Shown one piece after another: positions 3,434 through 53,612 of a DNA stretch of 59,422 bases. The DNA is from a virus (taxonomy: Duplodnaviria > Caudoviricetes): positions 1-59,422 of the IMG/VR virus record IMGVR_UViG_3300031227_000043, one strand, 5' to 3'. Position 1 is the stretch's first letter. The number at the start of each line of letters is the position of its first letter. The position numbers were made by a program, and so were the translations under genes. The notes below the pieces were generated by a model. The model searched no databases and was not told where the DNA came from. It was given only the letters and a program-made list of their open reading frames with translations.

Positions 3434-3448
3434 TGCTGCTCCTTATCA

Positions 3449-3760
3449 TTACCCTACAGCCATATGTGGTCCTGTCTTGTCTGCTGCCTTATCAACCAGG
3501 GACTGCTCCATCTTACCTGCCGCTATGGCCAGCTCATTCTCTACCCTGGTGCGCTTCAGGTCCAGCTTATGGTCCCTGGTCAGCTCATGGTACTCATGAG
3601 CATTCTTGGCTATGAGCGCTGCACTGAGCTGCTTGACCACGCGGTCATGCCTGAGCCTGTCGAGGTAGCCCGCCACACCCTGATAGATCACGACCACTAC
3701 CAGTATGATGAGTGGCACTACCTTATAGATGTTGTCCATTGTTGATGTGTCCATTGCCAT
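3449..3760 (-). CDS. Hypothetical protein with N-terminal TM helix
   Basis: RBS GGGAGG; hydrophobic stretch VVPLIILVVVVIY; in-operon. Confidence 0.7.
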   Translation of the reverse strand: MAMDTSTMDNIYKVVPLIILVVVVIYQGVAGYLDRLRHDRVVKQLSAALIAKNAHEYHELTRDHKLDLKRTRVENELAIAAGKMEQSLVDKAADKTGPHMAVG

Positions 3761-3797
3761 TACCTCCCGGTCACTGCTTAGTGTTAATGCCTAGGCC

Positions 3798-4016
3798 CTA
3801 GTCATCCTTCATTGCATCACGCATTGCCATACGCCTGCGCTGACTGGTCTTGATATAGCCGGTCGCTGCAGACTTACTGCGCTTATTAGCAGCCGCCTGC
3901 TGCCTATCCTTACGCTCGGTAGCCTCACGCTGCTTGGCCTTTGCCTCATCCTTGGCCTTCTTGCTCGCATTGCGCCGTCTCATCACACCTTTCCAGAACT
4001 TGATAGTGTCGCCCAT
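3798..4016 (-). CDS. Small Lys/Arg-rich protein
   Basis: RBS AAGGAGA overlapping the terL stop; in-operon. Confidence 0.65.
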   Translation of the reverse strand: MGDTIKFWKGVMRRRNASKKAKDEAKAKQREATERKDRQQAAANKRSKSAATGYIKTSQRRRMAMRDAMKDD

Positions 4017-17229: not shown

Positions 17230-19992
17230 CTATCCTCCTGTATTGGTTAATGTTGTTGATAGCTGCAGCTCATATAGCTCATCTAGGCGGTCATCAGTAT
17301 ATTTGCCCAATGCGCCCCAGTTCAAGCCAATCTCCGGGTCCACTGGTATAGGCACACTGAGCTTGACTACATGCTCCATGGTGGCGGCCACTATTGGTAT
17401 GAATATAGGTATCAGTGGGATCTCTACTTCGCTTAATATGTCGTCGTGTATTTGCAGCAACGGCCAACAGTGCCAACCCTCATTGCGGAACTGCTTATAG
17501 ACCGAGTTGAGCTTGCCCATAGCCTTCTTGATGACACCTTGCGCCCCTGACTGGATCGGCATGTTGCCAGCTTCTCTAAGCGTCTTCTCTACTATGTATT
17601 TGTCAGCTGCCCGGACGCCGGGAGTGAGCCGAATGCGTCCCCACATGTCAGTGACATAGCCATAGCGGCGCGCCTGCTGCTGGACACGGGCCATGAATGC
17701 TTTAACACCAGGATATAGCGCAAACCACTCAGCTATAAACTCCTTGCAGCGGGCCACAGTCCATGTCTTGGCATCGGCGCCGTCAGCCATTAGGGTTTCA
17801 TGCAGGCCCATTTCAGTGCCGCCATATGGTATCAGGAAGTTAACGGTCTTGGCCGGACGCCGGTGATCGTATTTGCTCAGTTGGTCCATGGGTATGCCAA
17901 ATATCTCAGAAGCAGTCCGGCTGTGGATGTCTTGGCCCTTGTGGAAGACCTCCAACATAGTCGGGTCCTGGGATTCATGCGCCATCATGCGGAGTTCAAT
18001 CTGCGAATAGTCACTGCTGACTAAGACGCAACCTGGCGACGCTACAAACCCGGATCTGATCTTGCGGCCCTCTTCAGAGCGCACTGGCTGTGCCATTAAA
18101 TTTGGATCGAAAGTTGACAGCCTTCCAGTGGCGGTATTGGTGAGGCGAATATTGGGATGCACTCGGCTATCAGGCTGTATAAAGTGGATTACCGGTTTGC
18201 TATAGGTCGATATCAATTTCTCATAACCGCGCCAGTCTCGGTTCTTCTGGATAAGAGCGCCATGTGTAGGATTTTTGGTATAGACTGGGAGGACGTCCTC
18301 AGATGTTGATGCCAGTCCAGTAGCAGTGCGCTTGATTGGTGGTAGCTTCAGGATCTTATAGAGCAACTTACGCATGTCAGGATGCGACCCAGGATTGAAC
18401 CAGGTGTCAGCAGGCCATGAGGTAGTAATTGTTTCATCAGTAGCCAGACCCTGTACAGCTATATTTATTTCGTCGTCCAATTTGGCCCGTTTGCCTTCAA
18501 ATAGCTCAGTCAGCTCCTCAAAACGGCCACGGTTGACTCTCATACCGGCCTTTTGCATGTCTGACGCCATTGGGATTACCCCTATATCGTCTCTGTAGGC
18601 GCCCATGAGGCCATTATAAGCCTCCAACCGGTGCCGTAGGATGGGATATAGCATAAAAGTGGCGTCAGCGTCCGCACAGGCGTAATTCAGGGCTTCCGGG
18701 AATGGTATCTGGCCTAAATTGCCCATGAGCATGCGGCCCAGGACCATTTCGACGTTGGCGCGGCCCAGATGTGGTTGTATCTTGAGCCAGCGCTCTCTGG
18801 GGTTGGCTCCCTTGAAATGGTCATCCATGAGGATGCGCTCTATGCGTTTGGCCACTGACCATGGCTTTTTGACTTTGGGTTTGCCCTTGACATATTCCAG
18901 GATCTCAGGGACGTCGGGCCAGTCATGGTCCAGGGCGGCAGCTAGATAGCTCATGGCATTGAGGCGTATGGCAGGGGCTACTACAGCTGTATAGGTGCGC
19001 ATGAGCATGTAGCAGTAGCGAGCGGCTAACTGCTTGAGGCCTAGGGGTTCACACTGTAGGAGGTAAGACATGATTATGGTGTCATGGAGGGTGCCGCCAG
19101 GATATATGTCCATTTGCTCTAATATAGGCAGATCGAATAAGGCACTGTGCATGATAGTGGTGGTGGTAGGTAGAGATACGTGGGCATTCAAATGCTGCAG
19201 CAGTTCGGTAGAAGTGGCTCTGATCAGGCCAGCTGCATGTGGCCGGGTGCTGTAGGTGAGGCACCACGGTATGGATTTGACAAAGCTGACACCAGGGGTT
19301 GCCACCTCCATGGTCTCAGTGTCGATGGCTATGGTGGTGGTGGAGGCAAGATCATTGGCGAGCTGCTTGGTCGTGGTGACTTCATAATAGTCTACAGGCT
19401 CAGGTGGCAGTGTACCGGGCGCTGGCTCCGGTTCGATGTTGCCTAATACAGCTTGGGCCAGTATCTTGAAGTCTGCCTGGACATTATGCATCACAGCCGG
19501 ATTATGGAGACCTGCTGCCGGATGATATACGGGGACTACGACACAGGGCATGTCAGCGTATGTAGTGTCAAATACTCGGCCATGGACCACGGGCATGATG
19601 CTGCCAGGTAGGAATTCCCTGGTGGCTATGGCACCTACCGTGGCAATGATGCGAGGCCGTAGTTGCGCGATCTCCTGTTGCAGCCAGCGACTACATGCAG
19701 CCAACTCAGCAGGTTCAGGGTCACGGTTTTCAGGGCAGCGGCACTTGATGACATTGGTGATATACATAGAGTCAGGAGGCAGACCTACACGAGCACATAC
19801 TAAGTCCAGTTCACGACCTGACTTGCCAATGAATGGGCGGCCAGTGTTGTCCTCTTGTTTGCCGGGACCTTCACCTATGAGCATTACCGGGATGGGTATA
19901 GTGTTGGTATTGCCTAGACCCCATACTATATGGTGGCGCGTGAGGTGTAATAGGCAGCGAGTGCAGGTGTTGGCGAGTTTTAGCTGGGGCAT
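17230..19992 (-). CDS. DNA polymerase family A with N-terminal family-4 uracil-DNA glycosylase domain and 3'-5' exonuclease
   Basis: UDG4: CTRC, GEGPG, GRPFIGKSG, TNVIKC, YHPAA. Exo: DTET, FD, YACAD. Pol: TGRLS, DYSQIELR, RRPAKTVNFLIPYG, QIHDD. Confidence 0.95.
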   Translation of the reverse strand: MPQLKLANTCTRCLLHLTRHHIVWGLGNTNTIPIPVMLIGEGPGKQEDNTGRPFIGKSGRELDLVCARVGLPPDSMYITNVIKCRCPENRDPEPAELAACSRWLQQEIAQLRPRIIATVGAIATREFLPGSIMPVVHGRVFDTTYADMPCVVVPVYHPAAGLHNPAVMHNVQADFKILAQAVLGNIEPEPAPGTLPPEPVDYYEVTTTKQLANDLASTTTIAIDTETMEVATPGVSFVKSIPWCLTYSTRPHAAGLIRATSTELLQHLNAHVSLPTTTTIMHSALFDLPILEQMDIYPGGTLHDTIIMSYLLQCEPLGLKQLAARYCYMLMRTYTAVVAPAIRLNAMSYLAAALDHDWPDVPEILEYVKGKPKVKKPWSVAKRIERILMDDHFKGANPRERWLKIQPHLGRANVEMVLGRMLMGNLGQIPFPEALNYACADADATFMLYPILRHRLEAYNGLMGAYRDDIGVIPMASDMQKAGMRVNRGRFEELTELFEGKRAKLDDEINIAVQGLATDETITTSWPADTWFNPGSHPDMRKLLYKILKLPPIKRTATGLASTSEDVLPVYTKNPTHGALIQKNRDWRGYEKLISTYSKPVIHFIQPDSRVHPNIRLTNTATGRLSTFDPNLMAQPVRSEEGRKIRSGFVASPGCVLVSSDYSQIELRMMAHESQDPTMLEVFHKGQDIHSRTASEIFGIPMDQLSKYDHRRPAKTVNFLIPYGGTEMGLHETLMADGADAKTWTVARCKEFIAEWFALYPGVKAFMARVQQQARRYGYVTDMWGRIRLTPGVRAADKYIVEKTLREAGNMPIQSGAQGVIKKAMGKLNSVYKQFRNEGWHCWPLLQIHDDILSEVEIPLIPIFIPIVAATMEHVVKLSVPIPVDPEIGLNWGALGKYTDDRLDELYELQLSTTLTNTGG

Positions 19993-40238: not shown

Positions 40239-41039
40239 TTACTGGTATTCTACAATTATATAAATAGAAGATGATGCTGTAAATGCTGCCAACGCCTCAA
40301 GTTTGACATGAATCTCATTAGTACCGTCAGCATCATAAAGCTGTATCACTTCCTTAAATTCCCATACCTTAACAATCCCTGTATCATCAGCGTGATCTTG
40401 TCCGGCCTCAGTAAACGTAAGTCCTGTAGCTGTTGGAGTAGCAGTTAACCGTTGATTCTCTACTGTAGCACCTAAGAATCTAATAAGATCATACTTAACA
40501 AGTCCAGCTGAGGTGTCGACTGTATCAGTTGTATCTGTAGCAGTCACCCCACCGTTGGTTTCAGTGTAGGATAAATTAAAGCTATGATCCCATATTAAAA
40601 GGTCTTCTGTATAAGCATCAGTTTCATAGAAAGATATACGAAAACTGACATCAGTATCAGCTGTAGGATCTGTACTTATATATACTTTAAGATTACGCAC
40701 AACAGGATTATTACCATTAATACTTGTCATATTTCCTGTCTGCGTAAGATTGCCAGCATGGAAGCCGGTTAAAATAGATATACCAAGATTAGCTGCACCA
40801 AGATTGAGGTCAGTAAAACTACCTGCTGCAGGGGTAGTGAGTCCGATGGTAGAGCTATTTATGACACCACCGTCAAAGGTTGACCCATCAATATCAGCAG
40901 TATCAATGTCGTAGTTTTCTAACCAACCACCTTCTGTAATTGGTACACCGTCATTGGTTTCGCTGTCAGCATAGGCTGGACAGGCACACAGTAGTACCGC
41001 CAGCAACACTGCCACAACTGTACTGTATAGTGTTTTCAT
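40239..41039 (-). CDS. Tail-fibre-like protein with signal peptide
   Basis: MKTLYSTVVAVLLAVLLCACPAYA; IDG-x3-DG-x-I...IG-x-TTPAAGSFT fibre repeat; Thr-rich. Confidence 0.65.
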   Translation of the reverse strand: MKTLYSTVVAVLLAVLLCACPAYADSETNDGVPITEGGWLENYDIDTADIDGSTFDGGVINSSTIGLTTPAAGSFTDLNLGAANLGISILTGFHAGNLTQTGNMTSINGNNPVVRNLKVYISTDPTADTDVSFRISFYETDAYTEDLLIWDHSFNLSYTETNGGVTATDTTDTVDTSAGLVKYDLIRFLGATVENQRLTATPTATGLTFTEAGQDHADDTGIVKVWEFKEVIQLYDADGTNEIHVKLEALAAFTASSSIYIIVEYQ

Positions 41040-41645: not shown

Positions 41646-44600
41646 TTATTGGTTATTGTCATTGCTGCTGCTGCCTTGCTGCTGTACTAGCCTCTTTAGA
41701 TCACGTAATGTACGAGTAGGGAATGATAGCTGGGACGTCTGAGTAGGTGCAGTGTTGGCTGCAGGTTTAACTGTTGCCTTAGCTGACCCTGCTCCACTCT
41801 TATCCTTAATACCCTTCACCTTGGTCATATACCGCTTGTTAAAGTCAGTCATGTACTTGTCCATGCGGATCTTAACCTTTTCTATTTGCACATTACGCTC
41901 ACTGGTTGATAAACGCTTACTGCCTTCTATTTGCTTTACAGTAGACCGCTCGAATTTAAGCTGCTTCTGTATGTATTGGGCATATGGGACTAGAGCCAAC
42001 TGAGCCTGTTTGGACTTGTTGATTTGCTTAATCATATCAGAGTCATTGGCAGTGGTCCAGTAGTCTCGTTGCTTTATGGCATACTTGATATCAGCTAAGT
42101 TGTCATGGTAAGCAGACCTAGTATAAAATTCAGACTTGCCACTATAGAGGCGACGTGCGAATGGTATCTCCTTGGCCTGAATGGGCTGTGAGGTGATGGC
42201 TTTGGCAGGCACACTAATGGTATTGGACATGAATTTGCCCAGGCCACCTGTTGCGGTGTCTACTAACATGTCTACTAACTCAGGCGATATATCTACTACG
42301 AAATCACCACGCGGGTCTATGCCAGCAGGATCGCCGCCTGTGAGCTCAAATAGCTTCTTGGTGACCCACTTGGACGGCTCCCGGCAACTGGACCAGTATA
42401 GCTGATAATTGGGCTTGGCCACATCAAATGGTGGCTGGTCAGGTCGCAGTGGGTTACCTGCAAAGTTCTTGTTTTCATTCCATTGGATAACTGGATCACT
42501 GATAGTAGGCGACAGGAATTGCCCTAATGAGACGTCGCCGCCTATCGGATTAAAGCTGGATATGGTAGAGCTTGCCATACGGCCTAGCATATGGCCCATG
42601 TCTAGAGGTTTACCGCGTGGGTCTATTGCTTCGCCTATGAGCTGGCCTAATGTGTGGAATACGTTAAAGCCCCACGGTAGCGGGATCTTGAAGTAGTCGC
42701 CGTCGCCCCATGGCCGCATCAGTACTAAGTTGTGATCCTTGACATAGTCCGGGATCTTGTCATAGCGGTCTTCACCATCGTCATCCTGGCCACCTAAGCT
42801 GCGATTGAGGGCGTCTAATGCAGCGGCTAATGCAATAGTGCCATAGACCATATTGCGAGTGGTGCTGCTGGTTGCAATGGACCTGATTACATTGACGTTG
42901 CCCTGCATGGAGGCGTTGTAAAACAGATACATGGCATTGGCATAGACGCCTAAGTCGCCTTTGCGAGTAAAGTTGACTGTGAGGTTCTTGGCTAACGATA
43001 TCGCCTTGGTCTTGCTCATGCCCAAGTCATTGACGGCGTGGTAGTAGGCTGAGAGCCGGACGCCATTTTCAACTATGGTATTGTAATCGGTTATCAAATC
43101 TAATGCGCCACGTATGATACGGCGGGCGCCACCTTTGACACCAGGCTTTAGTGTTCTGAGATGAGCTTTTAACTTTGCCTCGCGCTTCTCAATATTCTTG
43201 TGGTGGTCTATCCAGCCGGTGACGCCACCGAGTCGTTCATAGTCGGCAGCTGCCTGGCCCCAGGCATCGTCTGCTTTGACATTGCCCTTGAGCATGCGAC
43301 GGATGCCGCCCATGGCATGACCATTGAGTACGCTGCCCAAGACTGCGGCCTTAGTGTGTTTGAGTTTGGTAGCGCCTAATGTATAGCCAGCCATTTGAAA
43401 GTCCCGGAAGAAGTTGCTGATAATGAATTCAGGATTAAAGCTGGTATTGATCATAGCTAGATAACGATTAACAGTGGACATTATATTGACGAAGGCGCCT
43501 GTAGAGCGGCCACCTAAGTTCTTCATGGTATGGACTATGCGAGCAGCGTGGTAGTTGGCGTCGTTAAATGTTATGGTATGTTCCTCACCGTTAATGGGGA
43601 CCACTAAGACGTTGTCCGTGAACTTATAGAATATGTCACGGCCAAATACCACTTCACTCAATGCCTTGGGTAGCCCAGTGAATAAGCTGAGTTGGCGCCC
43701 ATCACCTTTGCGCTGCTTGAGCATAGGTTTGAGCTCCTCAGCGTCCACAGTCCATAATGAGGGTGCATTGACACTCTTGGCGAAATTATACAGCGCACGG
43801 CCTACCACAGCCTTCTCAGCGCGTATCAGGGTGGCTTCATGCTGTGCTATGATATTAGAGAATATGTTGGTAGCGCGTGAGCCTGCAGCACCAGTGAGGC
43901 GACGCTTAACGCCTTTGCTGGATAAGCTGAAGCCTTGACCAATGACAGGTAGTGATTTGCCTTTGCCTTCACGCTTGAGAGGTATGTAGTGGGCATAGGC
44001 ACTGCGCATTGCCTGGACTGCAGTGGCGTCCATGAGGCCTTCAGATTCTAATATGGTCAAGGTGGATTCTGTAATTGCATGGATGCGATTGGCAATATCA
44101 GGCATATATTGGTCACCCTTGAAATGATCTAATATATAGCCGGACTCCTCATTGGTCATGCCTGACAGTGCTTCGTTATGCTCAGTGCCAGGATTGATCT
44201 TGCGCAGTTGGGCGTTGGCTTCCGGCGCATGCAAGGCGTAGTTGTAGAGCTCGCAGTCTTCTAATGAGTGGCCGGACTTGGATATCAGCTGCTCCAGTGG
44301 TTCTACGTGGTCGTGAGTGAATAGGGTAATGCGTGCCGACGCCTTAGATGTATAGACCTCTTCAGCCTGGTATGCGTTATGGGCGTCATCTAATGGTGTG
44401 GCGGTCTCTAGCTCAACGCCTTGCTGAATACGCTTCAGTGAGTTAAGGCGGTCCTGCAGCTTGAACTGCATCAGGTCAAATACATAGCGGCCAGGGCCAT
44501 CAGTAGGCATATTGAAGCCTTCCGGTGATGCCGGGTTATGCACTTGGGCATAGGCTCTGGCAGCGTTGCGTGCCGAGTCTTCGTCAGTGGGTAGTGGTGC

Positions 44601-47600
44601 GCCAGGATTGATAGTGCGGTATTCAGCAAGTTTGCGCGATACCCAGTCGGCTTCTGGCTTGGTACGGGTAGCGAACATGGTTTGACCTTTATACAATACA
44701 GAGTCACGCATCTGTGAGGTGACTGCAACTGAATGCACAGGCTCCATTTTAGCACGGAAGTCTGTAATTGATATGCCTGATTCTATATCGGCTGTGGGCA
44801 CCTTGACATCCTCCACTTTGCTGCCCCACTGCTTAACATACTTGGCAGCGAACCCCATTAGCTTCTCGTCATAGAATGCCTTCATGCCGAAGCCACCTAT
44901 AGATAGGTCGTCGCCTGTTATGGTGCCATTAGTAGAGGAGCTGGCTATGATTTGCTGTGCCATCTTCTTGCCTATGATATCGACTAATGAGACTTCGCGG
45001 CCACCTATAGTAGTGGTGCCGATGAGTGGTATCATATGGTCGAATTGGGCCGTGCCTGATTTGCTGGCTACTATATGGACCATAGCCTCTGCTGCAGCAT
45101 GAGGTACAGCCATCCGCTGAGCAGCAATTAGCTGATCAAGCTCCGTGCGTTGGCCTGGAGTTAAGTCTTCCATGGGTAGCCTACGCAACTGCTGGTAGCG
45201 CTCGTAGCTATCGCGACCGGTTATAGCTTTGGGTATTGTCGGCGTTTGTTTACGCTTAGTCCAGGCTATCTCATCCACTTGCTGACGTAGTGCATCACTA
45301 TACCGTGCGATCTGCTGTATGCCAGTGGTCCAGCCTATACGGTCATAGCCGCCTTCAGCTGCCATACGCAGCATACGTTTGAATACGTACTCATGCCAGT
45401 TGTTGAGTAGCGGCGCAGGTGCTGCTGCATCGTTTAATGCCTTCCACTTGTCTCTGGCTGCCCCCTCTATATCTATTAGCCTATCATACTCTATACGCTC
45501 TTCTGACGTGAACGATGGCGAGCGCTCAACTGTGGAGCCCTTATTGTCATAGACTGCAGCTCTATATGCATTCGTATTAGCTATGGCCTTATCTAACACT
45601 TTACGGGCAGCAGCAGTAGCAACATCGTCCCGCATACCCTTCTCCTTAGCTTCCTGCAGCCAATCACTCTGTATCTCCTCTATGAACAATACCCTATCGC
45701 CGTTGTCTGCTATACGAGTATTGAATCTGACATGCGCTATAGGATCTATGCTGCCATAGTGCTGGTATGTAGGGCGCCATGTACCTTTGGACTCCATGTC
45801 ACCAGGCCATGTGAATAGCAGCTCGCGGTAGTCGGTGCCGCCAGAGCCGCTGCCTAATTGATAGGTGGGGTACTTATATGAAGGCACTTGTCCAGGTGGT
45901 AATGCAGCGGGCTCAGGCAGTATACCAGCACCTACAGCAGCCACATCGGGTTGGCCCTGCCCAAAGTCAAATGCTAATTGGTTCTCAGGCGTAGGCAAGT
46001 AGCCTTCTTGGCGATCCTCTGCTGCCTGTTCCTGTAGCTCCCGCTGCTCCTGTAGGTCATTGTAGTAGTCGTGGGCTGCCTCCACAGCAGCATCATAGCT
46101 GTCATAGTCGCCCTCAATGTCGCCAGGGCCATTCATATATACACCTGAATCATACCCCCTGGCAAATATGTTAAAGCCATGGTTAGAATCGTGGTATACT
46201 TCCTCGGCGTCTTCCCAGGCCCTCTCACTGGCCATATTCAAAGCACTGTCCATGGCACGGTCACGTAGATCCTGCATGTCATCTTCCGGTATACTGTCGC
46301 GGTCAGTTATGGTATCGGCGTCTTCTTCATCTACCTCGTTGGCTAAGTAGTCATCTACTAATTCGGTGAGCTCATCTTCAAAGTAGAACTCCTCTGCCTG
46401 TTCCTGTGTATATTCTGGATCAGGTTCAATAGTGGTGCCATTATCGAATTGAGGCGGCTCAAATTGGTCACCGGTTACATCCTCTGGATAGGCGCCACGG
46501 TCAGCAGTAGGTGGCTGCTCTATGATCACCAACTCCTGCGACTTAATATACTGCCTGAATGCTTCCCTATCGAATGTGCCCTGCTTGTCGGTGTTGGCTG
46601 CTAGCCATTCGGTAACGCCATACCATTTGAGCTCATCAGGCTTGACTCTGCCACGGCGCTCCAGCCATGTAGGTAGTGATTGAGCTTTGGCTGGCATGTC
46701 AGGTGCGGCAATAGATGTTAGTAGTGCTGAGTGCTGCCATGGTGCTATGGTGGGCGCAGTGGCCAGAGAGATGTTGCCTGTGGTAGGCGAGAAGGTGCCA
46801 CGGTTGAAGATGGACTTGATCTGGTTGGGATTGAGCGTAACCCATACATCGTGTTCCGCTTCTGTATAGACGTTTTCATCTGCGAAAGCCTGGTCTTTAG
46901 GTATGTATACCCCATCACGCCCTAATCGCTTGGCTTTTTCAATAAGCCTTTTTGGGCCTAGCTGAGTGTTCTCCCTATGAGTTGACACCATCGGATTTTT
47001 AATGCTCAAATACACTTGACTAACATTATCGCCGTATTCAACTGCCTCTTGATCACTTTCTATAAACCATGCGCCTCCACTTCGTTGGCCCATTATATAG
47101 TTATTTTCAGTGTCAGATCCATGATATACCACCAATGGCTTACCATCAGCACCTACCACCTTGCTATTGCCAAACCACTTCTTAAACGCCTTAGTATCAG
47201 TCATTGCCTTAGCAGCAGTAGCTAACTTAGCCCATGCTGACTTGGCATATTGCCGCTCAGGCCCTGACACCAATGACCCTGACATAATATCAGCATCACT
47301 AATTGGCGCTGGCTTATTCTGCTCACTGACATAATTCAGCAGACGTTGTTTAGCAGCTACTGTCATGGGCTTGCTATAGTATCCGGTAAACATCTTAGCG
47401 AAGTAGTCCTCTGGCCTGCTGAAACCCTTACCGCGCAACGCCTTACCCATGCGCTGCAGAAATGCTCTGATCTTCAGAAACATCTTGCGTATCCAGTTTG
47501 GATGCTGCGTAAACTTATTAGGCTTCTCCATGAATGTGACAAAAGCATCCATGGCTGATTCCTCATTGCCATTGAAGTGTTTGAGTAGGCTAGCCTTTTG

Positions 47601-50600
47601 TTTGGCAGTCATGCCTAAGTCTAATATCACATGGCCTGCTTCTTCCCAGGTAGCGCGTCTAATCTCACTGGCAGTGGCCTCATATGACAGCTCTACTAGG
47701 TAGCGTATCTGGGCCTCTATATTGCGCAAGTAGGGTGTGGTAGCGCCTAATATGCGGTCTAGTTGGCCACCATGCTCAGTATACGACTTACTGAAGTCTT
47801 TGCCCGACAGTGATATGTATTGTTTGAATTCCAGGTCTACGTGAGCCAATAGAGCATCAGACATTCCTGCCTCACGCATCCAGGATTTGATATTGCCTAC
47901 CAGTGTCTTGTTGCGGCCATACTGCTTAGGCGTAATGCGAGGCGCTACTCCCTCATATGCTAATGCGGGATCTTGTGAGGCAAACTTGGACATTCCCTCA
48001 TAGAGAGCTTTGGCTTTCATCTTTTGGGTTATGGGGAGCATCCAGACTTCGGTGGGAGTCGCTGACCCTGCATATTTTATTACATAGTCTACATTGCCAG
48101 ACTGTTCGGATAAGTACTGATCTGCCTCCACTTTCGTTGCAAAGTTTTCAACTATTTCATCAAGTTCTATATCATAAACACCATACGGAAAATCCTCTGG
48201 TTGCTCATAGTTTTGCGCTCCAATTTCAGTCGTTCCAACCTTCGCCTTGCCCCATGCAGGCTTATTGAAGAATTTATTTATAGCGGCAGGTAGGATCTTA
48301 TCATAAAACCCTTTCATACCTTCGCCACCTACTTTGAGGTCGAGGCCCTGTAACTTTCCACTGTCTTTGCCTGAATTAACTATCTTTTCAGCTACATCCT
48401 TGCCAATTAGTTCTTCAATACCATTTGAGTCAAGGCCTCTTCTCTCTATCTGGTCGCCTGTATGAGGATAGGCAAATATGGTATATTTTCCATCGGACTC
48501 TTTTTGGTATGTGACTTGGGATACTTGCTTACTCAGATCGTATCTATCAGCCTGCACCTCTCCGGGAGTCCATGCGATCTGATCAAACCCATTCTCTGCT
48601 GCATACCTCACCACTCTCTTGATTGTCAGTAGGGGCCATGTCTTTTTGAAGGGAGCATTGGGCACTGCTTGGACATTTAGGGGGGTAGATGTGGCAACTC
48701 CAGCCTCATTTCTCCCTATGACTCTATCTAACGTAAAGTTGTCTTGGTGCAGCCACATAGTTCCCAGGTTAAACTCTAATTTACCATCTTGGGACTCTCT
48801 GACCCCTTTAACTGATCCCCACCCTCGGATATCATCCCCAACAACAAGGTCACTATGGTTTTCTGGGATATTAGGCAGGTCGGGTCTATCCCCACGGTAC
48901 CCCTTCTTGCGCCCCGCCTGGTGCCAATCGCTCTGTATCTCCTCTATAAAAAGAATCCGCTCACCGTTCGGGCCTGTTCTGGTGTTGAATCGAATGTGGG
49001 CTAAGACGTTGGGCTCGTCCCAATGGGCGGAGGTGTAGGCCGTTTTTTCATAAGTCCTTAATCCTTGTGCCACATATTGCTTTTCCCAACTAAGGGGCTG
49101 CCCTGGCTTTACTGTATCGGGTCCAGAAAGGATGTAGTTTCCGCCAGGGTCTTTGATTGCGACTTGGCCTTCAACCGTTGGATGTGGGACTACTGTGTAG
49201 CCGCTCTTTCCCGGCAGAGTCAGCAATAACTCCTTGTAGTTCTCGCCTCCGGGAAGTTGGTAGCTGGCAAATTTGGTATGGATTGCGTCTTGGCCTTGAT
49301 CGAAATACACATCCGTGCCACTCAAAGACCGAATGGCATCCTCAAGCGACCCGTAGGAACGAATGTGGTACCCAAGATCCTCTTGACAATCAATCCCACC
49401 TTCTTCATTTGGGACCAGTTTCGCCCCACTGTCAAACTCGTACTCACCATTTTTCTCAATCTCATCGGTTACTTCTGCCACATATGAGTTGAAATCGGGG
49501 CCTTCCCCACCCTTCTCCACCTCCTCAATCTCAACATTATTTGCCCGGACAAAATCAAGGATCTCCTGTTTGGTGACTTTGCCCCTCTGCTCTTTCAGCC
49601 ACCCCTCAAGGCCCACCCACTCTACTTCCTCCTGCTTTACATGTAGATTATTGATCATTCCCATCCATTGATTAGCAGGAGCCTTTTCTTGCTTCAGGCT
49701 TTTTATGCCTCTTTCTAACATGGACATGAATGGTTTGGCAGTGGGCGTGGTTCTGACCTTGACAGCTGCTGCAGCCTTGGTAGGCCCACTGATAGCAACT
49801 GCTGACTGAGCCTTATCATATATCTTAATGAGTTGGGCCTTATCCTTACGGTAGACTCTTGACGGTATAACAGGCTGCGGATGATAGCCGTATTCTAACC
49901 AGGAATCACCACTTGTAAAAATGTCCCTGGCCGTTACTGTTTTACTTACTATCTTATATTCACCCTTTAATGTTCCTTCCCCGTGCTCTTTTGCATAAGG
50001 TCTTACAGTTGTGACCCAGTCCCCTGGTAGTATTTTTTGTGGATCACCTTTTTCAACTGCTCTATATATCCTGACAGCTTTATTAGGCAGACCCTCAGAG
50101 TCGCTAATAATGCTGTAGGCTTTTCTATCTAAAGCATCTTCGCCAGTGCCATAGTATCTTAACCCCTCAAGAGAATAAACATCTTCTGGATATGTACCAT
50201 TTTCCATAAGGTCGTATAAAGGTGAGCCTGATTCTGGGTCAGAAGGAGAATGAACGCTATCACCTCTATCAAAGCTGCTGTCAACTTGTTTATATCCGAC
50301 TTCCTTTTTCCATTGTTTGATTGCACTACGCTTCTCCTCACGAGTCTTTATGGGGACACTGTCTACAAATTCCTGTGTTGTATTATACTTCTTGGCCTTG
50401 GCAGTGAGGCCCAGATCAGAGGTTTCTACGAGGAGATAAGATCCTGGAGAGGTTTTGGCAGTTGGCGTAGTTCTGATCTTATCTCCTGTAGCCAACTTAG
50501 TAGGGCCAGCAAAGAATCTAAACTCAGGGTGTTCCTCTAAAGCCTTATCGTAAAAATCATGAACACTTTTTAATCCAAAGTCAGACCATATTTTGTTGAC

Positions 50601-53576
50601 GCCCACCCCTGTTTTATCCATTGCTTTTCGGTGGGCACTGTAAAGTGGATTGTTTTGGTTAAATCTTGCATCAACAAATTCATCTTTTGAAAGGTTATGT
50701 CTCTTGATAAAGCCAACAAGTGGAGTTAGCTGTTTTGGTAGCCTACCCTGCTCCAAGGCTTGTTTTGATTCAATCTCGGTGGCAAGAATACCATCAAGAG
50801 TCTTTGATAGCTTATTAAAATCACCCTCACCAGAAGCAACAGTTCTACCATCAGATCGTGTTAAATCAAAAACAATAGTCTTTCCTGTGGATAACTCCTC
50901 AACCAAAGCAAGTTGCTTTTTTGTAGGTCTGCCTTGGCTTATCGGGATGTCAACATTGAGCTCATTCGTAGCGTTGATAACTCGGATGTTCCCGGTTTTA
51001 TCCATGAAGTTTCTCATGGCTTCAGTTCCACTACCTGCAAAATCGCCACTCAAAGCATGGGATGCTATTTCTCTGTGGTCAATGTTTCGCCCCTGGCTCG
51101 CAGATCCTAAGCTAATGCCACTACTATCAATTCCAATTCCTCCTCTTGTAATGTAGCCTATGCTTTCGGGTGCAGTTGTTTTGCCGTATTTTCTGATAGC
51201 CTTGGCATTCAGGGCTTTGGTGGTAGTCGGGGTCTTCTTGCCTGTAGTAGCTAACTTAGTGGGTCCAGTAATGCCCTTTACTGCTTTGGGTGCCTCAACC
51301 GGTGTAAGGCTCTCATGGGCACGCTCAGCAATTAATGTACCACTCTCGCCACCAGACTTATATAAGTAAAGAGGCCTGTCATTGCGCTTGTCCCATGAGC
51401 GAGCTACTATGGTGTATATCCGATTGGTCTGTTTGGAGTGGACTTTGCTGCCGACATCAAATTTCCAGTTGGTATACTCAGCAGCTTTGGCCTGCATACT
51501 GGCAACACCTGCAGCTACTTCATCGTGCATCTTCTTAGAAAACTTGCCCAGGCGCTTATCCTCCATGGAGATGGCTAACTTAGTGGGACCAGTAATTGCT
51601 GCGGGTGCCGACACGTCTGCCTTGGGATCAATGACAAATACAGAATTAGGCTCATTGCCACCCTCATCTATCCAGATTGCATTATAGCCTTGAGCCTCGG
51701 CAGCTGCTATGGCACCATCAATCTCTTCAGGCTTTGTTGCCTTGGGCAGTATATCTGACCTGTATATGGCACCAGTTGGGACATCTACCTCCTTTATCTC
51801 CTTATCCTGGCCAGACTGTGTAAACTGCCTAGCCCACTCCTTATCAGGAGAGTAGTAGTTGTCGCCTTCATTGTATTGGCTGACTCCTCTATAGAGTGTG
51901 GTCGTGGTAGCAGCAACAGTGGGAGATGCAGCACCCTGAGAGCCAGGAGGTCTATCAGGTTTAACCCTCGGTTTTGGCTTACCCTCGACCGGGAGAGGTT
52001 CGCCAGTGGGTGCTGCACCTTCCACTGCTGCTGCTGCATCGGCTACTGCTGCTGTAGGCATATCTAACTCAGGCACTAGCTCCTGTGTACTAGTAGCCGA
52101 TTGGTTAACCTCATATCCTGCAGCCTCTAATGTCTCACGCAGAAACTGACTGCGAAACGCTATCTGGAGTGAGCTATCTATGTCGTCTGCTGCATAGGCT
52201 CTAACACCTGCAGTTAATGAGTCAGACAGTTGAGACCTGACTTCTATAAGCTGATCAGGCGTGGCTGCTTTGCCATAGGCCATGGCGTCTTCTGTGGATT
52301 CAAAGTCAAGGCGGCCATCGAGGCCAACTGTGGCTAATTGCGTAGGGCCTTGGATAGTACCACCATCACCTATACCTTCTTGCTGCATCACACCCTGTAC
52401 CTTGACCATGCGCTTAGCTATGATCTTGTCCAGCTGCGGCAATATCCCAGTGGTATCTGTACTCAGCTTGGTCCTCAGCTCTTGTACCTGGCCCAGCGTA
52501 ACCTTGCCACTATCCAGATCATCCCTGATACCATTCAGATACTTAGTCCGGGTGCCACCCTGCACAGCCACACCGGCAGTATGGAACATCACGCCCATGC
52601 CTGCGCCCAGACTAGCAGCTTTCCAATACTTAGCCTTGAGGTCAGCATAGTCAATGGCAGCATGCCACTCGGCAAATGTCTGCTCACTGGGTTTGGCCGC
52701 CCATGATGCTGTCAACTCCGCAATTACTTCCTGCAGCCCTTCTGTGGCACCCTCACTAAGCCCAGCAGCCATACCACCTAAGAAGAAGCCAGTGAGCTTA
52801 CTAGCTATCTTCTTGGCTATTGGTCCCCGCATCATCTCTATACCGACCATATCAAAGAAGCTATTGACTGCGCCGCCTGCCATGGCTGCTAATTGTGCAT
52901 GCTCAGGATCTGCACCCTTCTGAATAGCCAAGTCATATATCTCATCCTTGTTCATTTTATAGAAGTAGGAGGTGGCCAGTGCTAATCCCACCTGCGGCAC
53001 ATATCGTAAGGCAAAACCAGAAGCAGTGGGACCAATACTGGACAATAGCTGTGTAAAGTAGCTTTCGGTGTTGGCCTGTACACCACGCGAGAACTCCTGC
53101 ACTGCGGGGTCATCGTCGTAGGCTTTGCTGGCCCAGTTCTTAATGGCTATTTCGGCATTGCGGAATGGATTGCCATAGTCAGTGTATTTGTCCATGGCAG
53201 CACCGGCTGCACCAATTACAGAGGCGTCAAAGCCACGCTCAGCTGGGAGGCCTACCATGCCACCTGCTCCATGTAGAGTCTGCTGTATGGCAGTTTTGGC
53301 GGCACCCTGCCAGTTGTATGTAGTGGGCTGATCAGGTTCAGGTGTAGGTGATGCTGTAGGTGTCTGCTGCATGATCCCTGTATCCTGTTCAGCTCTCTCC
53401 AGGTCTGCTAACAAGTCGCCAGTCGGGCTCCCTGTACCGGGCACTGCGCCTGCTCCATCTGCTGCGTCACCTATATCAGACGTGCCAGCGCCAGGTCCAG
53501 GTCCGGGATGTCCCGGCTGACCAGGCTCTATGCCTAATGCTTGCTCTGACTCCAGTATCTGCTCAAGTAATCCCAT
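41646..53576 (-). CDS. Giant polyvalent ejection-type protein (3976 aa): several ART-like modules, duplicated EEIQSDW domain, C-terminal LPD38-like region
   Basis: ART-PolyVal-like FKKWFG-x-SKVV...PLVVYHG...VYLSIKNP...PNQIKS; two HxRFNTR...FIEEIQSDW domains; C-terminal NP-x-F-x3-N-x2-RD, TVNF-x-RKG, KIPLPWG, NKNFAG-x-P. Confidence 0.85.
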   Translation of the reverse strand: MGLLEQILESEQALGIEPGQPGHPGPGPGAGTSDIGDAADGAGAVPGTGSPTGDLLADLERAEQDTGIMQQTPTASPTPEPDQPTTYNWQGAAKTAIQQTLHGAGGMVGLPAERGFDASVIGAAGAAMDKYTDYGNPFRNAEIAIKNWASKAYDDDPAVQEFSRGVQANTESYFTQLLSSIGPTASGFALRYVPQVGLALATSYFYKMNKDEIYDLAIQKGADPEHAQLAAMAGGAVNSFFDMVGIEMMRGPIAKKIASKLTGFFLGGMAAGLSEGATEGLQEVIAELTASWAAKPSEQTFAEWHAAIDYADLKAKYWKAASLGAGMGVMFHTAGVAVQGGTRTKYLNGIRDDLDSGKVTLGQVQELRTKLSTDTTGILPQLDKIIAKRMVKVQGVMQQEGIGDGGTIQGPTQLATVGLDGRLDFESTEDAMAYGKAATPDQLIEVRSQLSDSLTAGVRAYAADDIDSSLQIAFRSQFLRETLEAAGYEVNQSATSTQELVPELDMPTAAVADAAAAVEGAAPTGEPLPVEGKPKPRVKPDRPPGSQGAASPTVAATTTTLYRGVSQYNEGDNYYSPDKEWARQFTQSGQDKEIKEVDVPTGAIYRSDILPKATKPEEIDGAIAAAEAQGYNAIWIDEGGNEPNSVFVIDPKADVSAPAAITGPTKLAISMEDKRLGKFSKKMHDEVAAGVASMQAKAAEYTNWKFDVGSKVHSKQTNRIYTIVARSWDKRNDRPLYLYKSGGESGTLIAERAHESLTPVEAPKAVKGITGPTKLATTGKKTPTTTKALNAKAIRKYGKTTAPESIGYITRGGIGIDSSGISLGSASQGRNIDHREIASHALSGDFAGSGTEAMRNFMDKTGNIRVINATNELNVDIPISQGRPTKKQLALVEELSTGKTIVFDLTRSDGRTVASGEGDFNKLSKTLDGILATEIESKQALEQGRLPKQLTPLVGFIKRHNLSKDEFVDARFNQNNPLYSAHRKAMDKTGVGVNKIWSDFGLKSVHDFYDKALEEHPEFRFFAGPTKLATGDKIRTTPTAKTSPGSYLLVETSDLGLTAKAKKYNTTQEFVDSVPIKTREEKRSAIKQWKKEVGYKQVDSSFDRGDSVHSPSDPESGSPLYDLMENGTYPEDVYSLEGLRYYGTGEDALDRKAYSIISDSEGLPNKAVRIYRAVEKGDPQKILPGDWVTTVRPYAKEHGEGTLKGEYKIVSKTVTARDIFTSGDSWLEYGYHPQPVIPSRVYRKDKAQLIKIYDKAQSAVAISGPTKAAAAVKVRTTPTAKPFMSMLERGIKSLKQEKAPANQWMGMINNLHVKQEEVEWVGLEGWLKEQRGKVTKQEILDFVRANNVEIEEVEKGGEGPDFNSYVAEVTDEIEKNGEYEFDSGAKLVPNEEGGIDCQEDLGYHIRSYGSLEDAIRSLSGTDVYFDQGQDAIHTKFASYQLPGGENYKELLLTLPGKSGYTVVPHPTVEGQVAIKDPGGNYILSGPDTVKPGQPLSWEKQYVAQGLRTYEKTAYTSAHWDEPNVLAHIRFNTRTGPNGERILFIEEIQSDWHQAGRKKGYRGDRPDLPNIPENHSDLVVGDDIRGWGSVKGVRESQDGKLEFNLGTMWLHQDNFTLDRVIGRNEAGVATSTPLNVQAVPNAPFKKTWPLLTIKRVVRYAAENGFDQIAWTPGEVQADRYDLSKQVSQVTYQKESDGKYTIFAYPHTGDQIERRGLDSNGIEELIGKDVAEKIVNSGKDSGKLQGLDLKVGGEGMKGFYDKILPAAINKFFNKPAWGKAKVGTTEIGAQNYEQPEDFPYGVYDIELDEIVENFATKVEADQYLSEQSGNVDYVIKYAGSATPTEVWMLPITQKMKAKALYEGMSKFASQDPALAYEGVAPRITPKQYGRNKTLVGNIKSWMREAGMSDALLAHVDLEFKQYISLSGKDFSKSYTEHGGQLDRILGATTPYLRNIEAQIRYLVELSYEATASEIRRATWEEAGHVILDLGMTAKQKASLLKHFNGNEESAMDAFVTFMEKPNKFTQHPNWIRKMFLKIRAFLQRMGKALRGKGFSRPEDYFAKMFTGYYSKPMTVAAKQRLLNYVSEQNKPAPISDADIMSGSLVSGPERQYAKSAWAKLATAAKAMTDTKAFKKWFGNSKVVGADGKPLVVYHGSDTENNYIMGQRSGGAWFIESDQEAVEYGDNVSQVYLSIKNPMVSTHRENTQLGPKRLIEKAKRLGRDGVYIPKDQAFADENVYTEAEHDVWVTLNPNQIKSIFNRGTFSPTTGNISLATAPTIAPWQHSALLTSIAAPDMPAKAQSLPTWLERRGRVKPDELKWYGVTEWLAANTDKQGTFDREAFRQYIKSQELVIIEQPPTADRGAYPEDVTGDQFEPPQFDNGTTIEPDPEYTQEQAEEFYFEDELTELVDDYLANEVDEEDADTITDRDSIPEDDMQDLRDRAMDSALNMASERAWEDAEEVYHDSNHGFNIFARGYDSGVYMNGPGDIEGDYDSYDAAVEAAHDYYNDLQEQRELQEQAAEDRQEGYLPTPENQLAFDFGQGQPDVAAVGAGILPEPAALPPGQVPSYKYPTYQLGSGSGGTDYRELLFTWPGDMESKGTWRPTYQHYGSIDPIAHVRFNTRIADNGDRVLFIEEIQSDWLQEAKEKGMRDDVATAAARKVLDKAIANTNAYRAAVYDNKGSTVERSPSFTSEERIEYDRLIDIEGAARDKWKALNDAAAPAPLLNNWHEYVFKRMLRMAAEGGYDRIGWTTGIQQIARYSDALRQQVDEIAWTKRKQTPTIPKAITGRDSYERYQQLRRLPMEDLTPGQRTELDQLIAAQRMAVPHAAAEAMVHIVASKSGTAQFDHMIPLIGTTTIGGREVSLVDIIGKKMAQQIIASSSTNGTITGDDLSIGGFGMKAFYDEKLMGFAAKYVKQWGSKVEDVKVPTADIESGISITDFRAKMEPVHSVAVTSQMRDSVLYKGQTMFATRTKPEADWVSRKLAEYRTINPGAPLPTDEDSARNAARAYAQVHNPASPEGFNMPTDGPGRYVFDLMQFKLQDRLNSLKRIQQGVELETATPLDDAHNAYQAEEVYTSKASARITLFTHDHVEPLEQLISKSGHSLEDCELYNYALHAPEANAQLRKINPGTEHNEALSGMTNEESGYILDHFKGDQYMPDIANRIHAITESTLTILESEGLMDATAVQAMRSAYAHYIPLKREGKGKSLPVIGQGFSLSSKGVKRRLTGAAGSRATNIFSNIIAQHEATLIRAEKAVVGRALYNFAKSVNAPSLWTVDAEELKPMLKQRKGDGRQLSLFTGLPKALSEVVFGRDIFYKFTDNVLVVPINGEEHTITFNDANYHAARIVHTMKNLGGRSTGAFVNIMSTVNRYLAMINTSFNPEFIISNFFRDFQMAGYTLGATKLKHTKAAVLGSVLNGHAMGGIRRMLKGNVKADDAWGQAAADYERLGGVTGWIDHHKNIEKREAKLKAHLRTLKPGVKGGARRIIRGALDLITDYNTIVENGVRLSAYYHAVNDLGMSKTKAISLAKNLTVNFTRKGDLGVYANAMYLFYNASMQGNVNVIRSIATSSTTRNMVYGTIALAAALDALNRSLGGQDDDGEDRYDKIPDYVKDHNLVLMRPWGDGDYFKIPLPWGFNVFHTLGQLIGEAIDPRGKPLDMGHMLGRMASSTISSFNPIGGDVSLGQFLSPTISDPVIQWNENKNFAGNPLRPDQPPFDVAKPNYQLYWSSCREPSKWVTKKLFELTGGDPAGIDPRGDFVVDISPELVDMLVDTATGGLGKFMSNTISVPAKAITSQPIQAKEIPFARRLYSGKSEFYTRSAYHDNLADIKYAIKQRDYWTTANDSDMIKQINKSKQAQLALVPYAQYIQKQLKFERSTVKQIEGSKRLSTSERNVQIEKVKIRMDKYMTDFNKRYMTKVKGIKDKSGAGSAKATVKPAANTAPTQTSQLSFPTRTLRDLKRLVQQQGSSSNDNNQ
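49734..52349 (-). repeat. Interspersed GPT(K/Q)LA(T) linker repeats inside the giant gene
   Basis: Copies at 52329-52349, 51574-51596, 51250-51272, 50490-50510 and 49773-49796 (51574 and 51250 copies 22/23 identical); KxRTTPTAK 27-nt repeat at ~50454-50480 and 49734-49760. Confidence 0.9.
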
Positions 53577-53581
53577 TATGA

Positions 53582-53605
53582 CTCCTGTGCTCCTGTGCTC
53601 CTGTG
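53582..53605 (-). repeat. Triplicated 8-mer CACAGGAG containing the RBS of the giant gene
   Basis: CTCCTGTG x3 on the + strand. Confidence 0.8.
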
Positions 53606-53612
53606 CTACTAT

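Follow-up and report, generated by a model that had tools for sequence, protein, structure and literature searches.

What is the function of a short peptide that recurs between otherwise unrelated parts of one giant phage protein? This question is raised by IMG/VR virus record IMGVR_UViG_3300031227_000043, which was analyzed here over its whole length of 59,422 bp (hereafter the window) and the completeness of which is put at about 70% by the record's own estimate. Among public runs the window occurs in salt-lake metagenomes, and the phage itself is an uncultured salt-lake phage. The peptide is located in the following gene:

41646..53576, minus strand: giant open reading frame (ORF) for a polyvalent virion-cargo protein, a single ORF of 3976 amino acids (aa) by translation

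The gene product is a polyvalent cargo protein in which a lineage-specific N-terminus is followed by about ten modules that can be exchanged, and in which the last 900 aa or so are conserved. The peptide stands at the borders of the modules. We favor the hypothesis, to which we give about an even chance of being right, that it represents an internalized leader-type signal for packaging or processing, and that modules are gained and lost at these signals.

The giant protein contains GPT(K/Q)(L/A)A at five sites and (K/S/M)(L/F)A(T/S) at five more. From the N- to the C-terminus these are:

52329..52349, minus strand: junction GPTQLAT (in IQGPTQLAT), aa 410-416, at the end of the N-terminal region
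51570..51590, minus strand: junction GPTKLAI (in ITGPTKLAI), aa 663-669, at the border of modules A and B
51246..51266, minus strand: junction GPTKLAT (in ITGPTKLAT), aa 771-777, at the border of modules B and C; matches the aa-663 copy at 22/23 nucleotides (nt)
50454..50507, minus strand: junction GPTKLAT (in AGPTKLAT) with spacer GDKIRTTPTAK, aa 1024-1041, at the border of modules C and D
49734..49787, minus strand: junction GPTKAAA (in ISGPTKAAA) with spacer AVKVRTTPTAK, aa 1264-1281, at the border of modules D and E; a 55-nt, 75%-identical copy of the aa-1024 junction
49263..49274, minus strand: KFAS, aa 1435-1438, inside the E+F unit; counterparts in other carriers are TKFSQ and TKYSE
47976..47987, minus strand: KFAS, aa 1864-1867, at the end of the large domain F
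47217..47228, minus strand: KLAT, aa 2117-2120, junction before the ART module; left breakpoint of a natural variant
46758..46769, minus strand: SLAT, aa 2270-2273, tail after the ART domain; positional homolog of the IRYSV, ILFQE and IRMSS tails
44667..44678, minus strand: MFAT, aa 2967-2970, last junction; the conserved C-terminal region follows after about 30-70 aa

A preliminary description of this DNA had listed five GPT(K/Q) motifs at aa 410, 663, 771, 1024 and 1264, a match of 22/23 nt between two copies and a duplication of KxRTTPTAK, and all of these are present as described, RTTPTAK being found at aa 1035 and 1275. In the DNA, positions 51250-51272 and 51574-51596 are 96% identical over 23 nt, and positions 49734-49788 and 50454-50508 are 75% identical over 55 nt. 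The hexamer GPTKLA occurs three times, and 11 hexamers are repeated in the giant protein, compared to a mean of 0.43 and a maximum of 3 in 200 shuffles. The broader pattern G-x-[TSP]-x-[LFYM]-[AS]-[ST] was observed five times, with 0.27 occurrences expected. The related later motifs that had also been pointed out (KFAS, AKLAT, ISLAT and MFAT) do exist, but their frequency is not beyond chance: the tripeptide [LFYM]A[ST] by itself shows no enrichment (13 occurrences versus 8.3 expected), and the weaker sites therefore count only through their location. The spacers that follow the motif are rich in T, P and K, and at two junctions, MSKFAS and MFAT, a Met stands directly before the motif. An internal start before MSKFAS was considered and rejected, as GAGG is too close to the ATG.

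The location of the motifs was judged against the modules, the sizes of which between the successive strong motifs are 246, 101, 246 and 233 aa. Three modules are needed in what follows:

50523..51218, minus strand: core of module C, aa 787-1018, which recurs through shuffling in other polyvalent proteins, with stand-alone forms of about 240 aa and a low G+C content at third codon positions (GC3)
49803..50408, minus strand: module D core, aa 1057-1258, with a PHROG "ParB C-terminal domain" match at aa 1107-1237 and homologs that are 65-72% identical in other carriers
47229..47972, minus strand: module G, aa 1869-2116, homologous to the HEWYH-bearing domain of protein P0006; the site here is EEAGH, and the module is a possible degenerate zincin

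An exhaustive HMMER search in which aa 395-1300 served as the query returned 2913 hits. Modules C and D, the ART module and a part of module A were found to recur in other large proteins (hereafter carriers), in other orders, and as stand-alone proteins; modules C and D are present at varying positions in many large proteins and in stand-alone proteins of 160-250 aa. The similarity ends close to the motifs. In carriers with a module D of 65-72% identity, it extends from about 27 aa after GPTKLAT-1024 to 4-6 aa before ISGPTKAAA-1264, stand-alone module C proteins terminate 6-8 aa before the aa-1024 motif, and the Pfam ART model terminates about 7 aa before the motif in the giant protein as well as in the carriers P0020 and P0040. 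Among 170 alignments from 149 carriers, the numbers that cross the ten motif sites (from N to C) by at least 15 aa on both sides are 0, 0, 2, 3, 10, 3, 0, 1, 0 and 0, compared to a mean of 36.6 and a median of 16 at arbitrary positions between aa 760 and 1300 in the same alignments. Homology breaks at all motif sites except KFAS-1435, where three alignments cross the E+F unit. The suggestion that the protein is an array of cassettes has thereby gained support, both from the recurrence of modules elsewhere in other orders and from the breaks in homology at the motifs.

The base composition of the modules is consistent with this picture. GC3 is 0.37 in module C, 0.35 in module D, 0.41 in module A and 0.44 in the ART module, versus 0.50-0.55 at the gene ends and 0.52 +/- 0.07 in 37 other genes. 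The impression that some modules are more AT-rich than the gene ends was thus correct. Within the cores of modules C and D the values fall to 0.28-0.35 and rise again at the joint between them, a profile that fits separately acquired cassettes. Two other domains appear to be paralogs: a direct repeat of 87 nt with 70% identity (window 45653-45739 and 48917-49003) marks two domains of about 430 aa (aa ~1439-1864 and ~2541-2967) with the common motif (L/V)FIEEIQSDW, both of which end in a junction motif (KFAS and MFAT).

GPTK was found in none of the 149 carriers, including those with modules that are 50-72% identical, and the linker therefore belongs to the giant protein and does not travel with the cassettes. 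Other carriers have joint sequences of their own. The pattern [IL]LFQ[ET] is present five times in P0040 and [IP]R[YM]SS four times in P0135 (0/300 shuffles each), [IV]RYS[IV] is found three times in P0020 and GFQIA three times in P0044, while P0053 and P0031 have two copies each of their tail motif. Module C is flanked on both sides by DERGAIG in P0013 (two copies) and by [IV]RY[AS]V in P0009, and EGMPAYSS follows two different modules in P0004. The 13 ART-domain ends that we compared, from 11 proteins, all have after the conserved segment Q-I-K-S-A...G-x-F a tail of the form I-x-hydrophobic-x-x, and ISLAT occupies in the giant protein the place that is taken by IRYSV, ILFQE or IRMSS in other ART carriers. 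The end of the F-type domain has a recognizable form in several carriers, L-x-E/K-G-M/Q-x-x-F/Y-A/S-S/T (window 47985-47999, aa 1860-1864; P0004; P0081). The counterparts of LYEGMSKFAS, the context of the aa-1864 motif, are LREGMPAYSS in two copies in P0004 and LKEGMFRFAT in P0081, and the E-G-M codons in this region of the giant gene, GAG GGA ATG, look like a former ribosome-binding site and start codon.

Short peptides of a comparable kind are also found at the start of stand-alone cargo proteins in other phages. In a jumbo-phage record of 224 kb (IMG/VR; here G001), 20 ORFs start with MI-x-[KR]-[YF]-S, and only 3/190 pairs of these are similar beyond the leader. Eleven of the 20 genes are grouped in a single array, which is immediately followed by the genes for a head maturation protease (a PHROGs call, E 1.4e-9), an acidic scaffold-like protein and the major head protein (also a PHROGs call). 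The acidic scaffold-like ORF, which lies between the other two, contains PATKFST and QKKFAAL near its N-terminus. Four of the 20 leader proteins are homologous to the ART module or to module C, and in one of the ART homologs the leader lies, by extrapolation of the alignment, at most one residue from the position of AKLAT. One G001 protein, P0032, is a two-module fusion with the same leader at its start and at its internal joint. The leader has the appearance of a capsid-targeting signal, of a sequence type that would be new. As to its genomic setting, the region 122789-143469 of this jumbo myovirus has the leader MI-x-K/R-Y/F-S-x-L in a tandem array of genes with overlapping stop and start codons.

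A second example is provided by module D, which exists as a protein of 145 aa (gp301) in the T4-like Vibrio phage VH7D. This protein starts with MKTYTEFLSE, as compared to MKTYQEFIAE in ipII and ipIII of T4, and judged by its N-terminus it is probably an unrecognized internal (injected) protein; its gene (L006:1459-1896) is annotated as "ParB C-terminal domain." An N-terminus of the T4 type was seen in 17/57 small stand-alone homologs, versus 5/57 at a control position. The positional equivalence of junction peptides and the leaders of stand-alone cargo proteins is one of two new elements of this study. The other is a natural insertion or deletion (indel) of a module at the joints, which we identified by alignment of contigs from four salt-lake runs to the gene at a likeness threshold of 85%. 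All four runs cover the gene, and one contig of run X1, which may be the source sample of the record, lacks the following stretch:

46779..47225, minus strand: ART-PolyVal module stretch missing from one run X1 contig, 447 nt, aa 2118-2266, replaced by 12 nt encoding LSAT

In this contig, position 46778 is joined to 47226 with 12 other letters between them, at a depth of 5.6 versus 10.6-13 for the reference form. The variant reads ...SAWAK-LSAT-GNISLATAPT... in frame, with the 149-residue ART module missing; its left breakpoint is located at AKLAT and its right breakpoint two residues before ISLAT. The contig is best read as a related strain, and it indicates that module swapping happens in one lake population. 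The check for module loss in orthologs or deletion variants was possible only through contigs of public runs, and it yielded this single in-frame loss of ART with its breaks at the motifs. Three further joints (48257>48924, 48342>48901 and 48666>48901) were attributed to other organisms, as their sides of 23-26 letters lie in conserved islands of domain F and their depth is above that of the phage. Loose contig ends were rejected as junction markers, as they cluster in the same islands. Within the gene itself, module B lies between the members of one of the two closest linker pairs (23/27 nt) and module D between those of the other (42/60 nt), which looks like a duplication of the linker upon insertion.

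We hypothesize that I-x-G-P-T-K-L-A-T, or its weaker form K/S/M-L/F-A-T/S, together with the Thr/Lys/Pro-rich spacer, would be the internal counterpart of an N-terminal cargo leader and would be recognized as a signal by a lineage-specific reader. In keeping with this, the motif copies are conserved as peptides, their identical residues being encoded differently at up to 6/7 positions. We picture the reader most probably as a protease by which the chain would be cleaved into its modules, and possibly as the packaging machinery. The signal would then act during assembly, through capsid targeting or processing by a head protease, and not specifically after injection. What we infer here is threefold: recognition of the motif, its cleavage as a protease site, and the nature of the reader. 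If each module starts with the same signal, in-frame indels and duplications at the joints would therefore give working proteins, hence the gain and loss of modules there. Polyvalent proteins and leader-bearing gene arrays could be seen as fused and split versions of the same thing. It is possible, although we consider it somewhat doubtful, that junction peptides are in general a lineage-specific code for "pack and cut here," and that polyvalent proteins are fused leader-bearing arrays that are processed like viral polyproteins. If such a general code exists, one could derive from sequence alone which proteins an uncultured phage injects and exactly where they are cut.

Several observations weigh against the hypothesis of an internalized signal. 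No protease was recognized among the 79 other ORFs of the window by Pfam or PHROGs, nor at E up to 1 for the 18 ORFs of the structural region, and neither BLAST nor phmmer detected in the window a homolog of the protease, scaffold or capsid proteins of G001. As the window represents about 70% of the genome, a protease might be encoded in the part beyond it. A Pfam hit of the Prp family, which would point to processing of the Prp type, is likewise missing from the window. Furthermore, this phage group may lack a head protease, given that the major capsid protein of the related phage phi24B is not processed according to the available text of the phi24B preprint. Nor does the giant protein itself contain HExxH or a Pfam hit to a zincin-like metallopeptidase (MPTase), whereas HExxH is present in 26/53 large carriers, with 1.5 expected. 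A zincin-like MPTase is not obligatory in the polyvalent class, being present in about 36% of its members in the part of PMC5512222 available to us.

The motif is also confined to one protein. GPT[KQ] is present in 0/79 other ORFs of the window, and [KMLS][LF]A[TS] in 3/79 but in none near an N-terminus, so that no internal control is available in the form of a capsid or scaffold site. In the giant proteins of four cultured relatives (933W, K249, RPZH3 and Bcep22) we found neither this motif nor a clear repeated joint, nor the RYS-type motif that was sought as well, and 5/10 carriers of the ART tail have no repeat of the tail motif beyond chance. The motif was found in no relative, because the collections searched contain no close one: the search with aa 1-1400 at giant length recovered the query alone, the search for "shorter" proteins with aa 90-780 and that for module G as a stand-alone protein gave no match, and neither did IMG/VR scans (N-terminal domain, ITGPTKLAT pattern, module G and P0058) or a megablast search of the giant gene against phage records. 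One distant match (25%) was obtained in a metagenome scan with module G. Finally, the ART-less variant consists of a single contig at 85% likeness, and the synonymous divergence between the motif copies could predate fusion, having been inherited from separate leader-bearing genes, and is no proof of present-day selection.

Module G is 26% identical to a domain of P0006 (E 2e-25) and has EEAGH where P0006 has HEWYH, which makes it a candidate for a degenerate peptidase of the zincin-like kind. Some 23 residues after EEAGH it retains the conserved segment E-E-S..D. In the protein atlas only unnamed clusters were matched, apart from a lead to LPD23, carried by 20% of the proteins in the 30th-ranked cluster. 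Comparison with PDB sequences gave nothing meaningful, and the AlphaFold model of the module (mean predicted local distance difference test, pLDDT, 58) had no Foldseek match at E <= 0.001.

We also considered the possibility that the junction peptides are relics of gene fusion, that is, former N-terminal leaders of tandem cargo genes that have been fused, without a present function. The G001 arrays with their overlapping stop and start codons, together with the one two-module fusion that retains an internal leader, make such an origin conceivable. The Met just before the motif at MSKFAS and MFAT would be expected of a former leader, the reader protease was not found in the window, and EEAGH looks like a decayed HExxH. 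However, modules C and D are foreign in GC3 and yet have flanks in the resident dialect, while their closest homologs elsewhere have other linkers, and a nine-residue peptide that is kept at five joints beside unconserved flanks suggests constraint. We think it unlikely that the peptides are relics.

Conserved pre-toxin motifs of polymorphic toxins are points of cassette exchange, and by analogy the repeats could serve mainly as anchors in the DNA, at which homologous recombination swaps, deletes or duplicates modules in frame. The preliminary description had suggested such anchors, and its idea must be divided into two parts. In-frame gain and loss at the joints is upheld by the variant from run X1, the breakpoints of which are at the motifs, and by the bracketing of modules B and D, the flanks of which are the two most similar pairs (22/23 nt identical for B, 42/60 nt for D). 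Recombinational cassette variability is also raised for some polyvalent loci by Iyer et al. (PMC5512222), in the part of the article that bears on this point. The same observations would also speak for anchoring through the DNA, but as anchors of this kind the repeats are poor. The codons of identical residues differ between motif copies at 2/8 up to 6/7 positions, with the majority of synonymous sites differing in most copies, and runs of identity do not exceed 23 nt. The motifs that flank the ART indel are encoded differently, with no useful DNA identity, and the variant retains both, whereas recombination between repeats would leave one. Moreover, the same modules have different linkers elsewhere, so the repeat cannot guide exchange between lineages. 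In our view it is quite improbable that anchoring is the main role of the repeats.

The remaining idea, to which we give little credence, is that the motif and its basic spacer are an uncleaved structural or docking element, a flexible connector that may bind a common partner (the capsid interior, the portal or DNA), with the whole chain packed and threaded out as beads on a string. In its favor, T, P and K abound in the spacers, and phi24B gp47 has been proposed as a large ejection protein in the available text on that phage. In G001, stand-alone ART proteins terminate with ...NPDIRY, and the tail there can thus not be a cut site. In a model of aa 655-1040, the motifs are coil of low confidence directly behind the last confidently predicted helix of module C; this model is weak evidence (6 sequences, mean pLDDT 56), and low confidence at the motifs says little. 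Against the idea, a plain linker needs no conserved sequence of nine residues, and in G001, beside the head protease gene, 20 unrelated stand-alone proteins begin with a peptide of this kind.

The hypothesis of an internalized signal thus remains the one we favor, and it can be placed in the context of the protein class. The signature domains of the polyvalent class, LPD families and ART-PolyVal, are both present in the giant protein: LPD38 at aa 3602-3806 with 134.9 bits (Pfam cut-off 27) and ART-PolyVal at aa 2143-2258 with 47.8 bits (cut-off 31.2). Independent homologs, in other architectures and as stand-alone proteins, were found for at least four modules (part of A, C, D and ART), and the protein thus combines several unrelated effector-type domains in one chain. 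Its C-terminal part is shared more widely:

41832..44468, minus strand: conserved C-terminal region including LPD38, aa 3037-3915, common to the giant virion proteins of 933W, Vibrio K249, Ralstonia RPZH3 and Bcep22

With the C-terminal 891 aa as a query, tblastn matched 339 phage records at 24-31% identity over 77-100% of the query, and 331 of them cover at least 80% of it. These matches include Shiga toxin (Stx) phages such as 933W, Vibrio phages, Ralstonia phages and Bcep22. BLASTP comparison of the giant protein to its counterparts in 933W, K249, RPZH3 and Bcep22 showed only aa ~3000-3920 to be in common, and the middle parts of those four proteins consist of other domains. The conserved C-terminal region of about 900 aa with LPD38 makes it a giant virion protein of the 933W/Bcep22 type. 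In the published accounts available to us, JC1 gp69 (51 unique peptides) and phi24B gp47 were both detected in virions by mass spectrometry, and phi24B gp47 is abundant and yet invisible in cryo-electron microscopy. Judging from these homologs only, it is reasonable to consider the giant protein an ejection or cargo protein that is packaged in the virion.

Three other features of the window may be recorded here. Directly upstream of the ATG of the giant ORF, GCACAGGA is present three times in tandem (minus strand, window 53577-53606), and each copy contains the Shine-Dalgarno-like AGGAG. Two genes downstream of the giant gene, a 266-aa ORF without a family match (40239-41039, minus strand) has a GC3 of 0.27, the minimum of the window. 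At 17230-19992 (minus strand), a family A DNA polymerase carries an N-terminal domain of the uracil-DNA-glycosylase superfamily (Pfam UDG, aa 34-165).

The first weapons that a phage injects are believed to be its polyvalent proteins. How such a chain is packed and converted to working enzymes is an open question according to the authors of the phi24B work, as far as their available text goes. A junction peptide that is equivalent to a leader would offer exact, mutable sites at which processing and packaging can be tested, a means to recognize cargo genes in uncultured phages, and break points for the swapping of payloads.

The proteins of 933W-like and Bcep22-like podoviruses (phi24B gp47, JC1 gp69 and Bcep22 gp75) resemble the giant protein in the C-terminal 900 aa or so, at 24-31% identity, and are encoded in the late gene block, as is the giant gene here, but they are unrelated to it upstream of about aa 3000. 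In RNA-virus polyproteins, conserved short sequences at the domain joints are cut sites. The proteins and enzymes of RNA-virus polyproteins and of polymorphic toxins are unrelated to the giant protein, and the likeness lies in the short conserved joint sequences, which are known here from sequence alone. An analogy to the RNA-virus polyproteins has also been drawn by Iyer, Burroughs, Anand, de Souza and Aravind (2017; PMC5512222), who propose, in the portions of the article available to us, that domains are released by embedded peptidases and that the proteins vary in a cassette-like manner.

The polyvalent proteins defined in these portions of Iyer et al. (2017; PMC5512222) are, like the giant protein, very large and combine many effector-type domains that are unrelated to each other, among them ART-PolyVal and LPD38, the latter confined to phages, whereas the giant protein is without a canonical HExxH peptidase. 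No junction or linker motif is named there (the words "linker" and "boundaries" have 0 occurrences each), and the available text of the phi24B preprint describes no such junction motif either. Another parallel is offered by the cysteine protease Prp, which cuts between F and A in an N-terminal motif that ribosomal protein L27 has in common with the non-homologous capsid and scaffold proteins of phage 80alpha (the accessible part of PMC5744158). The sequences KF-AS and MF-AT of the giant protein look similar to this site, a resemblance that spans 3-4 residues only.

The internal proteins of T4 provide the last comparison. There, a short leader that is common to unrelated cargo marks the proteins for the capsid and for cutting; it consists of 10 residues with hydrophobic-x-Glu, targets the capsid and is removed by the gp21 protease (PMC9026906, in the available part). 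The homolog of module D in VH7D carries such a leader. In the giant protein the signal is internal, repeated in one chain and different in sequence, and no gp21-like head protease was found in the window. By analogy, the giant protein may work like the T4 system of capsid-targeting sequence and gp21 protease, without being a member of it.

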